From contig CAYTLS010000001.1 of the NCBI GenBank assembly GCA_964438745.1, positions 1 to 24,899 of the forward strand: a stretch of DNA of 24,899 nucleotides. Reading direction: 5' to 3'. The notes beneath the pieces were generated by a model that was not told where the DNA came from, searched no databases, and was given only the letters and a program-made list of their open reading frames with translations. Positions 11 through 15,630 of this stretch are shown one piece after another. Within the stretch, counting starts at the first letter, position 1; every line of letters starts with the position of its first letter. The stretch is from an uncultured bacterium (lineage in GTDB: Bacteria; Fidelibacterota; UBA2242; JAFGTP01). The translations under genes were made by a program, and so were the position numbers.

Positions 11-967
11 ATGGAATTAAACAATGTAAAGGATATTATCGGATATCGACTGGGGGAAACCGTTCACTGTATTAACGCGAATTTGATGGAGGGGGGCTGT
101 GGCACCAGTGAGTATTGCGCTTCCTGCGGCGCTGCGATCTCGATGGTATCGTCACTGGAAAAAAAATCAACATCCGAACAGTTATGCTCAATCAGAGTGC
201 AGAATAATGGCACACAAAACAATATATACTTTAAAGTAAAATCAGCCCACATTAAAGTTAATGACGAAAACTTTGTATTGATTTTTCTGGAAGATGTTAC
301 CCAAAATCAAAAAATGGCTGAGCTGGAACAGGTCTTTTTTCATGATATCTTCAACAAAGTATCAGGTATCATCAATGGTTGTGAAATTTTAAAATACCAA
401 AGTACCGAAAATACTGAAATCATTCAAATTATTTATGATCTCACTTATCAAATGGTGCGGGAAATTGATTTTCAACGGAAAATTATAAAAAATGAAAATA
501 ATGAAATTGCAGCGGACATCGATATTGTTTCTTTAGCCACTGTTTACCAGGAAATAAAACGTGTATTTAGTAATCACAGCGTCATAGAAAACAGGCTGTT
601 GACCTTTCCTGACACTATTGAAAACATCCGCTTTTATTCCGATATATCGATCATTGTGAGGGTTTTGACCAATATGATCAAAAACGCGCTGGAATCCACT
701 CCAAAAGGCGGTCAGGTGATTGTTTCACATCGGTCCAGTTCCGATTACATTTCAATCGAAGTTTGGAATGAAAAATTCATTGAACCAAAGATTGCCAAAC
801 AAATTTTCAGACGGAATTTTACGACAAAAAAAGGCCCCGGCCATGGTTTCGGTACTTTTTCCATGAAATTACTGGGCGAGGAAATGCTGGGAGGCAAAAT
901 TAGTTTTGCGACCTCAGTGGAAAAGGGAACCACCTTCCGGTTTGATATTCCCAATGAAAAGCCATAA
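11..967 (+). CDS. Sensor histidine kinase (PAS-like Cys-rich region + HisKA + HATPase_c); probably 5'-truncated by the window edge
   Basis: H-box FFHDIFN, N-box VLTNMIKNALE, F-box QIFRRNFTTK, G2 GPGHGFGTFS. The frame is open upstream of the ATG to the window start (att gaa gct atg). Confidence 0.9.
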   Translation: MELNNVKDIIGYRLGETVHCINANLMEGGCGTSEYCASCGAAISMVSSLEKKSTSEQLCSIRVQNNGTQNNIYFKVKSAHIKVNDENFVLIFLEDVTQNQKMAELEQVFFHDIFNKVSGIINGCEILKYQSTENTEIIQIIYDLTYQMVREIDFQRKIIKNENNEIAADIDIVSLATVYQEIKRVFSNHSVIENRLLTFPDTIENIRFYSDISIIVRVLTNMIKNALESTPKGGQVIVSHRSSSDYISIEVWNEKFIEPKIAKQIFRRNFTTKKGPGHGFGTFSMKLLGEEMLGGKISFATSVEKGTTFRFDIPNEKP

Positions 968-998
968 AAAAATACCGGCAAGTAATACCCTGCCGGTA
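967..998 (-). terminator. Intrinsic terminator, mainly for the minus-strand ECF operon
   Basis: Stem TACCGGCA (973-980) / TGCCGGTA (991-998) with a 10-nt loop. The plus-strand A-run gives a U-tract on the minus strand. Lies between convergent genes. Confidence 0.8.
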
Positions 999-1015: not shown

Positions 1016-2362
1016 CTATTTAACGACAAATCGTTGTGCAAATTCTGAATAGTCAATTTTCCCCGCAGTGTAATCAAGCACATCCTGTTTTTTGCATGAG
1101 AGATTTCTTTCTTGCTTTGCACTGGTGTTGTTCAAATTGATCTTAACGCTGATCTTTTCATCCGGCTGAACACTTTTCAGTGTTGCTCCGTAGATCGACA
1201 ATGTTTTTATAATATCTTCCTGGGTTTTATCCATAATAGAATCCAGTTCCGTCGCAGAAAATTCAGAACCGGAAAACGAAATAATATCAGTTTCAATATC
1301 ACCCTCCAGATCACTCTCAACCTGAACATTGATATCGATGTTTTCATTATCATCAGAGGATGCAACAATATGAGAATCTTTGTCAGTTTTATATTTGTAT
1401 TTATGGACGCTGGTTTTATTGTCTTTTTCTTGCTCCTTATCTGCTTTTACTTTGAAGTTTTCCAGTTTCTTTTGAGCCTTTTCCAATTCTTGCTGCACAT
1501 TTTCCATTTTCTTCTGAATTACTTTGGTATTGACCTGGAATGGGAAAAATTCTGTATTTCCGGCAATCGGCACATTAAATACGGCACCAAAGCCTTCAAG
1601 ATAAAAACCAGTGCTCTTGTTGCGCTTGTTCCAGAATTCAGATTTCTTTTCCAGAAAAGTATCAAAAATATTTGTCATCACTTCAATATCCTTTTTCTGA
1701 TTATCACTGGTTGGCGCATTGAAAATTAATTTTTGTTCAAGTTTACTCTCATCCATTTTACCCCGATAAAATCGTTTCAGATCCGCGACAGTGGCCGTCA
1801 TTTGTATCACCGCCGGAATATTGTACTTCCTATCCAGATGACGACTACGGTCTACTTTGAGATTGACCATGATCTTTTCAGACTCTTTCATTTCCAGGGT
1901 GCCGCGAGTATAGTTGAAGAAAAATTCCAACAGGATTTCTTTTACCATCTCCAGTTTCTTGTCAATTTCCGCCTGGGTATCCTGCTTTTTTTGTTCCAGT
2001 TTCTGTTGTTGCTCTTTGATTCTTTTCCGGTCTTCCTCTTCTTGATCACTGAGTTGAATCCTGCCATCTTCATCAATAATAGGAATCGGGGGCAATTCAG
2101 GAATTCTTAATTCCAACTGCTCACCTAAATTAAAGAAACCGGCGCTTTCAACAGTCAACACAATGCCATAATCATCATAATATTCCCCCTGAAATCTGTC
2201 TCCATAGGAGAAAAATATCGGACTGTCTTCCACAATCATCTTATCCAGAATATTTTCCATTATCGCAATATCCTTTTCCATACTCATGGGCATTGCAATT
2301 GCTGTCCGGCCCAATAAAAATGAAAGCGTAACGAAAAGGGTAATTAATTTTATAGTTTTCAT
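1016..2362 (-). CDS. Exported hypothetical protein with an internal two-fold domain duplication, third gene of the ECF operon
   Basis: 448-aa ORF with an N-terminal signal peptide (MKTIKLITLFVTLSFLLGRTAIA) and RBS-like AGGAG upstream. It starts 32 bp after the anti-sigma stop. Repeated motifs KDIAIMENILD / KDIEVMTNIFD. Confidence 0.85.
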   Translation of the reverse strand: MKTIKLITLFVTLSFLLGRTAIAMPMSMEKDIAIMENILDKMIVEDSPIFFSYGDRFQGEYYDDYGIVLTVESAGFFNLGEQLELRIPELPPIPIIDEDGRIQLSDQEEEDRKRIKEQQQKLEQKKQDTQAEIDKKLEMVKEILLEFFFNYTRGTLEMKESEKIMVNLKVDRSRHLDRKYNIPAVIQMTATVADLKRFYRGKMDESKLEQKLIFNAPTSDNQKKDIEVMTNIFDTFLEKKSEFWNKRNKSTGFYLEGFGAVFNVPIAGNTEFFPFQVNTKVIQKKMENVQQELEKAQKKLENFKVKADKEQEKDNKTSVHKYKYKTDKDSHIVASSDDNENIDINVQVESDLEGDIETDIISFSGSEFSATELDSIMDKTQEDIIKTLSIYGATLKSVQPDEKISVKINLNNTSAKQERNLSCKKQDVLDYTAGKIDYSEFAQRFVVK

Positions 2363-2394
2363 TTTAGAACTCCTTTATTAAAAAATGTTGATGT

Positions 2395-3057
2395 TTATTT
2401 TGAGCGTCCGGTGTTTAATAAATTTATAATTTCATCGACCGTGTGACTCGTCTGCTGTATTCTTATATCATTGGCTTTGTAAGCATGATTAACAGTACCC
2501 AGCAATTCTTCATATTCGCGGCTGCGTTCCTTGCGCATTTCCGTCAGCAAATTTCTCAGCATGACCACGGTTTGCTTTTCATCCCTGGCTTGGTAGGATT
2601 CCAAAAGTTGGGTGGTGAGTTTATAATTTTCATACTGTATTTTTTCTAACATTTCAGGAGTAAGTTCCTGCTGGGGTGTGGCCGTTTCCCGGGAGGTTAG
2701 CAACGCGGTCTGAAAGGTGAATCCATCATCCGTCACTTCGATTTTTGTATTGAATAAGGCCATGATAAAAAGAATTACGGCAAAGCCCAGCCCAATCTTT
2801 TTAACCCTTCCAAAATCCGGTATTAATTTTTGGAGAATCGCTGCCCATGAACTCTCTTCTTGAGTGAATGTCAATTGTACCGGTACCGGTTCATCTTTCC
2901 ATTGATTGAGAAAGTCAGGAACAGTAACCAACTCTTGATATTTTTTCCGGCATTCGCCACAGTGCTGCAAATGCTCTTCTATTTTTTGTTTGTTATCCGG
3001 ACTGATCTCATCATAGATCATATCCATGATCAATCGTTTATAATCTTTACATTTCAT
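2395..3057 (-). CDS. Zinc-binding anti-sigma factor (ZAS / zf-HC2) with a single TM helix and a coiled-coil C-terminal region
   Basis: N-terminal C-x(26)-HLQHCGEC (HxxxCxxC) motif and TM segment IGLGFAVILFIMALF. Overlaps the sigma stop by 11 bp. Confidence 0.9.
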   Translation of the reverse strand: MKCKDYKRLIMDMIYDEISPDNKQKIEEHLQHCGECRKKYQELVTVPDFLNQWKDEPVPVQLTFTQEESSWAAILQKLIPDFGRVKKIGLGFAVILFIMALFNTKIEVTDDGFTFQTALLTSRETATPQQELTPEMLEKIQYENYKLTTQLLESYQARDEKQTVVMLRNLLTEMRKERSREYEELLGTVNHAYKANDIRIQQTSHTVDEIINLLNTGRSK

Positions 3058-3616
3058 AGCCGAGGTCCTCCTTTCCTATTCCCCATTTCACGATAACTTT
3101 ACGAAGAGCATTCAGTCCGTAATACATACGCGCTTTCACAGTATTGACCGGTTCATTGAGAATAGATGCAATCTCAGTGAACTTCAGGTTATGGTACTGT
3201 TTCATGATAATAACAACACGTTGTTCTCTGGGAATAGTTTGCAATGCTTGTTTTATTATTAAATTTGATGTCTGATCATTGGTTTTGAATTGATGTTCTT
3301 TTCCAGGATTAAATTCCAGGTCATCATTGATTGTTATTTCTGAAAAATTTATTTCCCTTTTCTTGCGGAAATAATTTTTACTCTGATTAATCGCAATAGA
3401 GTAAAGCCAGGATTTAAATTTTTCCCGCTCTTTCAACTTTTTTAATTTTTTATACATCAGGACAAAGGTCTGTTGCATGATATCCCCCGCCACTTCCCGG
3501 TCACCAATATATTTAAGCAGAAAATTAAACAGTTGGCCCTGGTGCTTTCTGACCAGAACATTGAAAGCGGAAATATCGCCTTCTAAATAGTTTGCTATTA
3601 ATTCTTCATTTTTCAT
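3047..3616 (-). CDS. ECF (sigma-70 family group 4) RNA polymerase sigma factor
   Basis: 189 aa; region 2 (GDISAFNVLV..DIMQQTF..FKSWLYSIAIN) and region 4 (QRVVIIMKQYHNLKFTEIASILNEPVNTVKARMYYG). Confidence 0.95.
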   Translation of the reverse strand: MKNEELIANYLEGDISAFNVLVRKHQGQLFNFLLKYIGDREVAGDIMQQTFVLMYKKLKKLKEREKFKSWLYSIAINQSKNYFRKKREINFSEITINDDLEFNPGKEHQFKTNDQTSNLIIKQALQTIPREQRVVIIMKQYHNLKFTEIASILNEPVNTVKARMYYGLNALRKVIVKWGIGKEDLGYEM

Positions 3617-3625
3617 AATTGTCCC

Positions 3626-3653
3626 TTAGACCCACCTTAAGGAAAAAAAGTTT
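3626..3653 (-). promoter_or_regulatory. Putative ECF-dependent autoregulatory promoter AAACTT-N16-GTCTAA
   Basis: Minus strand reads AAACTT (3653-3648), a 16-nt spacer, then GTCTAA (3631-3626), ending 9 nt before the sigma ATG. Matches the general ECF -35 AAC / -10 GTC pattern. Confidence 0.7.
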
Positions 3654-14712: not shown

Positions 14713-14754
14713 AACAATTCCCTTTCGTTTATCTTATTAATTTATTTACAGACT

Positions 14755-14785
14755 TGAGACTTACAACCTGATTAAAAGTTGTCAA
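14755..14785 (-). promoter_or_regulatory. Putative ECF promoter for paralog A (TGACAACTTTTA; CAACTT-N15-GTCTCA)
   Basis: The block is conserved upstream of paralog B and resembles the promoter upstream of the ECF sigma gene. Confidence 0.55.
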
Positions 14786-15599: not shown

Positions 15600-15630
15600 T
15601 ACGACTTATCATGATTTGTAAAAGTTGTCA
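15600..15630 (-). promoter_or_regulatory. Putative ECF promoter for paralog B (TGACAACTTTTA; CAACTT-N16-GTCGTA)
   Basis: Shares the 12-mer TGACAACTTTTA and TAAGTC..AAG.CTGTA with the paralog A upstream region. Confidence 0.6.

Follow-up and report, generated by a model that had tools for sequence, protein, structure and literature searches.

What is the role of an exported protein that matches no named family and is encoded directly behind a sigma factor of the extracytoplasmic function (ECF) type and its anti-sigma factor? The question is raised by a contig of an uncultured bacterium of the Fidelibacterota (GenBank CAYTLS010000001.1, assembly GCA_964438745.1), of which 24,899 nucleotides (nt), together called the window, were analysed. 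The gene concerned is an open reading frame (ORF) of 448 codons at positions 1016..2362. It lies on the complementary strand, as do all features of the operon given below, and its product is called X here. According to the reading frame, an AlphaFold2 model and profile matches, X is a predicted exported protein of two homologous alpha/beta domains. The anti-sigma factor encoded next to it has a conserved periplasmic domain of its own, and within the genomes examined this domain and X co-occur exclusively. Both the accessory protein family X and the periplasmic domain of its anti-sigma factor are undescribed. By analogy with known systems, X may be the third component of an autoregulated ECF module and, without being an enzyme, act in the periplasm as a partner of the anti-sigma factor; we regard this proposal as evenly balanced between right and wrong.

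Tandem domains of X

According to the original prediction, X is exported and consists of one unnamed domain in duplicate, with four motif pairs recurring in the same order. All four pairs were found in that order, at residues 30-40/224-234, 59-71/252-264, 150-168/390-408 and 194-204/427-437. Comparison of the two halves of X alone gives a marginal BLASTP match (E=0.004), and with four-sequence profiles two core segments align separately (P=5.7e-5 and 7.8e-5). It is the family profiles that make the repeat decisive. In an alignment of 95 members the core of domain 1 matches the core of domain 2 over 126 columns with P=1.2e-33 (99.9% probability), and with the inserts retained P=2.5e-30. Domain 1 comprises residues 28-218 (1709..2281) and domain 2 residues 219-448 (1019..1708), the boundaries being taken from the AlphaFold2 secondary structure. 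In both halves a long helix and a beta-hairpin come first, then the insert, another long helix, two strands, a pair of short helices and finally a short strand. This shared order, together with the profile match, suggests that the halves are structurally equivalent, and the claim of a pseudo-dimer of one domain thus stood up.

The AlphaFold2 model of X (95-sequence alignment) has a mean predicted local distance difference test score (pLDDT) of 82.6 and a predicted template modelling score (pTM) of 0.72. For a compact relative of 364 amino acids (P0045, 94-sequence alignment) the values are pLDDT 85.8 and pTM 0.81. The pTM values of 0.72-0.81 indicate a defined arrangement of the two domains, which in the models are packed together.

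The core of the X domain has about 135 residues and contains the motifs DIxIME..L, G.YL.G(Y/F)G..F, F...Y and YR.GK in the 95-member alignment. The core segments have near-constant lengths across the family, about 45, 78-88, 51 and 79 residues. Single-domain versions occur in Eisenbacteria (224 amino acids in locus L033 and 250 in L036), and the unit of about 135 residues is therefore an independent domain. The nearly invariant positions of the 95-member alignment are glycine, tyrosine, phenylalanine, leucine and one glutamate, so that no catalytic set is apparent. This conservation pattern suggests a domain for binding or scaffolding and not an enzyme.

The original prediction also held that each copy carries a long charged insert, resembling a coiled coil, at the same position. 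The position is indeed equivalent: in each half the insert follows strand 2 and precedes helix 2. On the other hand, the long charged coiled coil is not a trait of the family: the inserts are lineage-specific, and their length varies from 33 to 107 residues for insert 1 and from 26 to 117 for insert 2. In X itself the insert helices consist of charged residues by about 50%. Insert 1 covers residues 76-135 (1958..2137), and its charged helical part, with about 53% of D/E/K/R, runs on into the core helix H107-150. Insert 2 covers residues 269-369 (1256..1558) and contains a charged helix (279-313), after which comes an acidic, predicted disordered stretch (317-365) in which acidic and hydrophobic residues alternate. 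Since their length is lineage-specific, the inserts are unlikely to form a conserved docking surface for the anti-sigma factor. As sensing surfaces of individual lineages they are more plausible than as a conserved docking site.

Several peculiarities of the inserts were observed in individual lineages. Protein P0157 (locus L041, 1447-2898) has a complete CarboxypepD_reg beta-sandwich within insert 1 of the first X domain, and thus this loop accepts insertions of whole domains. In a Marinimicrobia clade (homologues from loci L004-L009) insert 2 contains alternating tracts of aspartate and aromatic residues, such as DFDFDFDFDFD. In X this tract is degenerate (IDINVQVESDLEGDIETDII; residues about 320-369, window positions about 1256-1400). 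The tract was considered as a general trait of the family and rejected, as it is present in 10 of the 95 members, all of them with long inserts, and is absent from the short-insert majority.

The protein begins with a candidate signal sequence, residues 1-23 (MKTIKLITLFVTLSFLLGRTAIA; 2294..2362). The hydrophobic segment (residues 4-24) contains the sole hydrophobic 19-mer of X and is followed by A-I-A, in agreement with an A-x-A cleavage site. An N-terminal hydrophobic segment is present in all 95 family members examined. From these features X is predicted to be exported and to have no further membrane segment, which agrees with the export proposed originally.

The family is large and nameless. 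An exhaustive profile search, which covered 1.84 billion representatives, yielded 553 clusters (at 50% identity) with E<=1e-3 and 210 clusters with E<=1e-10. This search was needed to reveal the family, as a word-index homologue search returned three to eight relatives. The usual length is 360-480 amino acids, and all names on the cluster members read 'hypothetical protein'. X (P0001) has no match in Pfam at E<=1 and none in NCBIfam. No relevant Pfam family was found for the 95 members at E<=0.01 (a few scattered matches are noise), and ten members searched at E<=10 gave noise only. A search of PDB with sequence profiles produced no match apart from coiled-coil noise. The statement that X cannot be assigned to a characterised family was thus borne out in Pfam, NCBIfam and PDB. 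The main text of the ECF classification (PMC7826278) does not mention the phyla in which X is found. A homologue of 333 amino acids, about 40% identical to X, is listed under the transcriptome of the eukaryote Anaeramoeba ignava (P0004, EukProt). This transcript presumably stems from a bacterium that was an associate or a contaminant, and its presence in a transcriptome suggests that the gene is expressed in a relative.

The operon and its conservation

The gene of X is the last of three. A candidate ECF-type promoter at 3626..3653, recognised by reading the sequence, consists of AAACTT (3653-3648), a 16-nt spacer and GTCTAA (3631-3626), and ends 9 nt before the ATG of the sigma factor gene. 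The sigma factor (3047..3616, 189 amino acids) matches Pfam Sigma70_r2 (1.3e-15) and Sigma70_r4_2 (8.5e-11). It has regions 2 and 4 only, and in the NCBIfam scan it scores 87 bits with TIGR02937 (sigma70-ECF), above the cut-off. Its gene overlaps by 11 nt that of the single-pass anti-sigma factor (2395..3057, 220 amino acids). The latter has an N-terminal zf-HC2 domain (Pfam, 2.3e-8) with H30-x3-C34-x2-C37, a transmembrane segment at about residues 86-104 and the periplasmic domain at residues 106-220 (2395-2742). The assignment of X to an ECF operon is therefore confirmed by the domains of both neighbours. The 32-nt gap between the anti-sigma stop codon and the ATG of X contains a candidate Shine-Dalgarno box AAAGGAG (2370..2376), 7 nt upstream of the start. 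Downstream of X, in the 48-base-pair (bp) gap before a convergent histidine kinase gene, there is a candidate intrinsic terminator (966..998) with an 8-bp GC-rich stem TACCGGCA/TGCCGGTA, a 10-nt loop and a run of seven T. It was found by eye, its loop exceeding the 8-nt limit of the automatic scan. This anatomy suggests that the three genes are co-transcribed as one operon, from the promoter through sigma factor, anti-sigma factor and X to the terminator. If the sigma factor reads this promoter, as the conservation of the promoter suggests, all three would be induced jointly.

The same arrangement is seen in other genomes. A search with a 10-member alignment found 27 loci in public genomes, most of them labelled Candidatus Neomarinimicrobiota and the others KSB1, 'Cytophagia', Eisenbacteria, Latescibacterota and Gemmatimonas. 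The sigma factor, the anti-sigma factor and X follow in this order on one strand in 25 of them, mostly with abutting or overlapping genes. One of the two remaining loci ends at a contig edge, and the other is a true exception (L036), the sole unlinked X homologue seen. The trio is also present in all four further distant members picked from the exhaustive search. Altogether the order is kept in 29 of the 30 informative loci, in several phyla, and the proposed linkage of X to ECF pairs is therefore conserved. On the contig of P0003, a zf-HC2 gene is situated directly upstream of X and is itself preceded by a cut ORF of 76 residues. The motif (A/G)AACTTTT...GTCTaA was found upstream of the orthologous sigma factor genes in about 20 of the 25 loci. 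Of five exceptions, three have a mis-called, shortened sigma start, and two (L032 and L034) lack the motif.

The periplasmic part of the anti-sigma factor is conserved together with X. Its mean column conservation (0.50) is similar to that of the sigma-binding part (0.59). The profile of the periplasmic domain matches the anti-sigma factors of all five most distant modules (L033, L037, L039, L040 and L041) with E from 6e-8 to 8e-26. Three of these five anti-sigma factors have lost the zinc motif, and one occurs beside an X with a single domain. Of 41 genomes from the same order, 29 contain X and 27 the anti-sigma factor, always adjacent. In the two mismatches the match to X is small or partial and located on a small contig, so that contig ends are the most likely explanation. 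Other anti-sigma matches in these 41 genomes share the N-terminal domain only. In a sample covering the whole phylum, 35 of 201 genomes contain X at E<=1e-5 with a profile of close relatives.

A possible role of X

A major way in which bacteria sense the state of the envelope is through ECF sigma factors. To our knowledge, the path of the signal to the anti-sigma factor is understood in few model systems only, such as RseB, CnrX and RsiV. The systems most similar to the one considered here are rpoE-rseABC and algU-mucAB. RseB and MucB (PF03888), like X, are exported, non-enzymatic, two-domain proteins, encoded directly downstream of a single-pass anti-sigma factor in an autoregulated ECF operon. 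RseB binds the periplasmic domain of the anti-sigma factor and gates its proteolysis; for X a role of this kind is proposed here. However, no match to PF03888 was found for X at E<=1 or for the 95 members at E<=0.01. The predicted fold of X, tandem small alpha/beta units with four to five strands and four to five helices each, differs from the LolA-like half-barrel and smaller C-terminal domain of RseB, and neither RseB nor LolA structures are among the Foldseek matches of either model. Besides, the anti-sigma factor of X is of the zf-HC2 type, and its own conserved periplasmic domain, predicted to be helical, is unrelated to RseA.

A second parallel is provided by the cnrYXH module of Cupriavidus metallidurans. 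CnrX is also the third, periplasm-facing protein of a three-gene module. It partners a short transmembrane anti-sigma factor and conveys a signal from outside the cytoplasm to an ECF sigma factor, and X may act similarly. At the same time, CnrX, a metal sensor, is a small dimer that is all-helical and membrane-anchored, unlike the alpha/beta tandem of 448 residues; X has no conserved metal-binding set of His, Cys and Met residues, the gene order differs, and there is no sequence similarity. The sigma factor and the N-terminal domain of the anti-sigma factor constitute an ordinary class I (zf-HC2/ZAS) pair, like RsiW-SigW and RslA-SigL. Indeed, the closest PDB matches of the anti-sigma factor, although weak, are RslA (3hug) and RsiW (5wuq). 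What distinguishes the present anti-sigma factor from those is the distinct conserved periplasmic domain co-occurring with X, and we know of no description of a conserved third gene of the X family with either pair.

The original prediction considered for X the role of a chaperone or of a sensor partner of the anti-sigma coiled coil; the co-occurrence of X with a dedicated periplasmic domain of the anti-sigma factor bears on this indirectly. In the mechanism proposed here, the conserved core of X would bind the helical domain of about 115 residues of the anti-sigma factor in the periplasm, and this binding would set how readily the anti-sigma factor is removed. One option is that X protects the anti-sigma factor against the initial cleavage in regulated proteolysis, in the manner of RseB with RseA. 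Another is that, like CnrX with CnrY, X relays a change induced by a ligand. Lineage-specific sensing or contact surfaces would be provided by the variable inserts. As X would be produced from a sigma-dependent operon, induction would raise its level as well and might help to reset the switch. The Pfam scan of the whole genome revealed no MucB/RseB homologue (PF03888), and the genome encodes M50 site-2 proteases; this fits a role of X as a partner of the anti-sigma factor.

The main alternative is that X is an output of the sigma factor, namely a periplasmic chaperone, a scaffold or a structural envelope protein that makes no contact with the anti-sigma factor. Effectors do occur in sigma factor operons, an example being oatA in sigV-rsiV of B. 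subtilis. X likewise is encoded in an operon under a sigma-type promoter, is predicted to be exported and appears to be non-enzymatic; its highly variable inserts, including CarboxypepD_reg, might suit varied envelope clients, and one homologue has no linked ECF pair. On the other hand, across very long evolutionary distances X remains single-copy and almost obligately linked, its start often overlapping the stop of the anti-sigma gene, and an output role leaves unexplained the conserved anti-sigma periplasmic domain found only beside X. We consider this explanation possible, with the balance somewhat tilted against it. Several observations weigh in turn against a partner of the anti-sigma factor. 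The conserved gene order and the co-occurrence would be no less expected of an X that is simply the principal product of sigma factor activity, and vertical inheritance of the operon as a unit could alone explain why the anti-sigma domain and X are found together. Since co-inheritance explains the co-occurrence either way, the present data do not separate a partner from an output. The exceptional homologue of Eisenbacteria (L036, 2824-3576) lies between ffh and rpsP, away from any ECF pair. Further, 11 of the 41 genomes of the same order have neither X nor the anti-sigma factor, some of them being 96-99% complete, and thus the module is dispensable. Finally, no fusion of an anti-sigma factor with X was found: the best 150 family matches have at most 483 amino acids, and eight longer members contain no anti-sigma part.

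Two further explanations concern the nature of X itself. A signal-anchor that stays uncleaved could hold X in the inner membrane, where, instead of being soluble in the periplasm, it would act as an integral co-anti-sigma subunit, like YhdK with YhdL in B. subtilis; this would be a variant of the partner role and no true alternative to it. The N-terminal segment is modelled by AlphaFold as a helix, an arginine is present in the region before the A-x-A site, and the hydrophobic N-terminus is kept by all members. However, the hydrophobic core of 13 residues is typical, the A-I-A that immediately follows it is a standard site for signal peptidase I, and AlphaFold routinely renders signal peptides as helices. 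An anchored X is therefore unlikely in our estimate. The second explanation makes X a distant relative, in bacteria with an outer membrane, of the Gram-positive CamS from the 'sex pheromone precursor' lipoprotein family, recently renamed ClcR and shown to assist the elongation transpeptidase as a cofactor (PMC13321084). The target of X would then be a peptidoglycan synthase, and the ECF module would place X under the control of envelope stress. CamS/ClcR proteins (PF07537) are similar to X in size, extracytoplasmic location and lack of enzymatic activity, and ClcR works through protein-protein contact (PMC13321084). When P0045 was compared with PDB by Foldseek, the top matches were four CamS-family structures from four Gram-positive species: 3n2q (E=2.4e-3), 3ib5 (E=7e-3, probability 0.84), 2qx2 and 4hn3 (E up to 0.1). 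They are the closest solved structures, but the similarity is weak (E >= 2.4e-3), with template modelling scores (TM-scores) of 0.20-0.25 and a root-mean-square deviation of 10-15 Å. Neither model has a PDB match at E<=0.001, and the model of X gave no CamS match and nothing below E=0.16. PF07537 was matched by none of the 95 members at E<=0.01 and by none of ten members at E<=10. A lipobox-like motif is present in three of the 95 members, and X, whose signal sequence has no cysteine, is not a lipoprotein. Finally, ClcR is not described as ECF-linked, whereas X is tied to ECF pairs, and the hosts of X have an outer membrane (Fibrobacterota-Chlorobiota-Bacteroidota group). The CamS likeness is thus a weak lead without sequence support, and we hold this explanation to be very improbable.

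Returning to X as a partner of the anti-sigma factor, it is conceivable, if rather doubtful, that the tandem represents a novel periplasmic sensor fold which together with the anti-sigma domain forms an envelope-stress sensor, a counterpart of RseA-RseB where RseB is lacking. The conserved core would then dock on the anti-sigma factor, and swappable inserts (charged helices, aspartate-aromatic tracts, CarboxypepD_reg) would read differing envelope signals. Such a system would be common to Marinimicrobia, KSB1, Latescibacterota, Gemmatimonadota and Eisenbacteria. If X is indeed the partner that senses, it would represent a structurally new way to control anti-sigma factors and a route into the envelope-stress physiology of organisms not yet grown. 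The immediate practical value is in annotation. An unnamed family of hundreds of clusters, with a matching anti-sigma domain, extends across largely uncultured phyla, including the abundant marine Marinimicrobia, and merits a domain entry.

Promoter-like sites and neighbouring genes

The genome was scanned for further copies of the promoter motif. A loose pattern yielded mostly noise in coding regions, and a tighter one yielded six intergenic sites. As the genome has five sigma factor genes of ECF size, sites elsewhere are not attributable to this particular sigma factor. Two sites of the form AACTTTT-N11-13-RGTC are situated in the window, at 14754-14780 and 15600-15626 on the complementary strand, upstream of two YfiR-like genes. 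Similar promoter-like sites were observed on other contigs of the genome, at C15:1465, C317:1034 and C55:3307, upstream of a few other genes, most of which encode exported proteins.

The convergent histidine kinase gene (11-967, direct strand) encodes a protein with a Cys-rich N-terminal region and shares the terminator region with X. Relatives from the same genus keep it beside the module (L003 and the contig of P0003), which more distant relatives do not. As it is kept within the genus only, it is not part of the module. In the genome of P0008 (locus L037, 4413-7284), genes for a MacA-like protein (YknX barrel), MacB/FtsX and an outer-membrane efflux protein come after the trio on the same strand; these efflux genes may be a part of the regulon in that genome.

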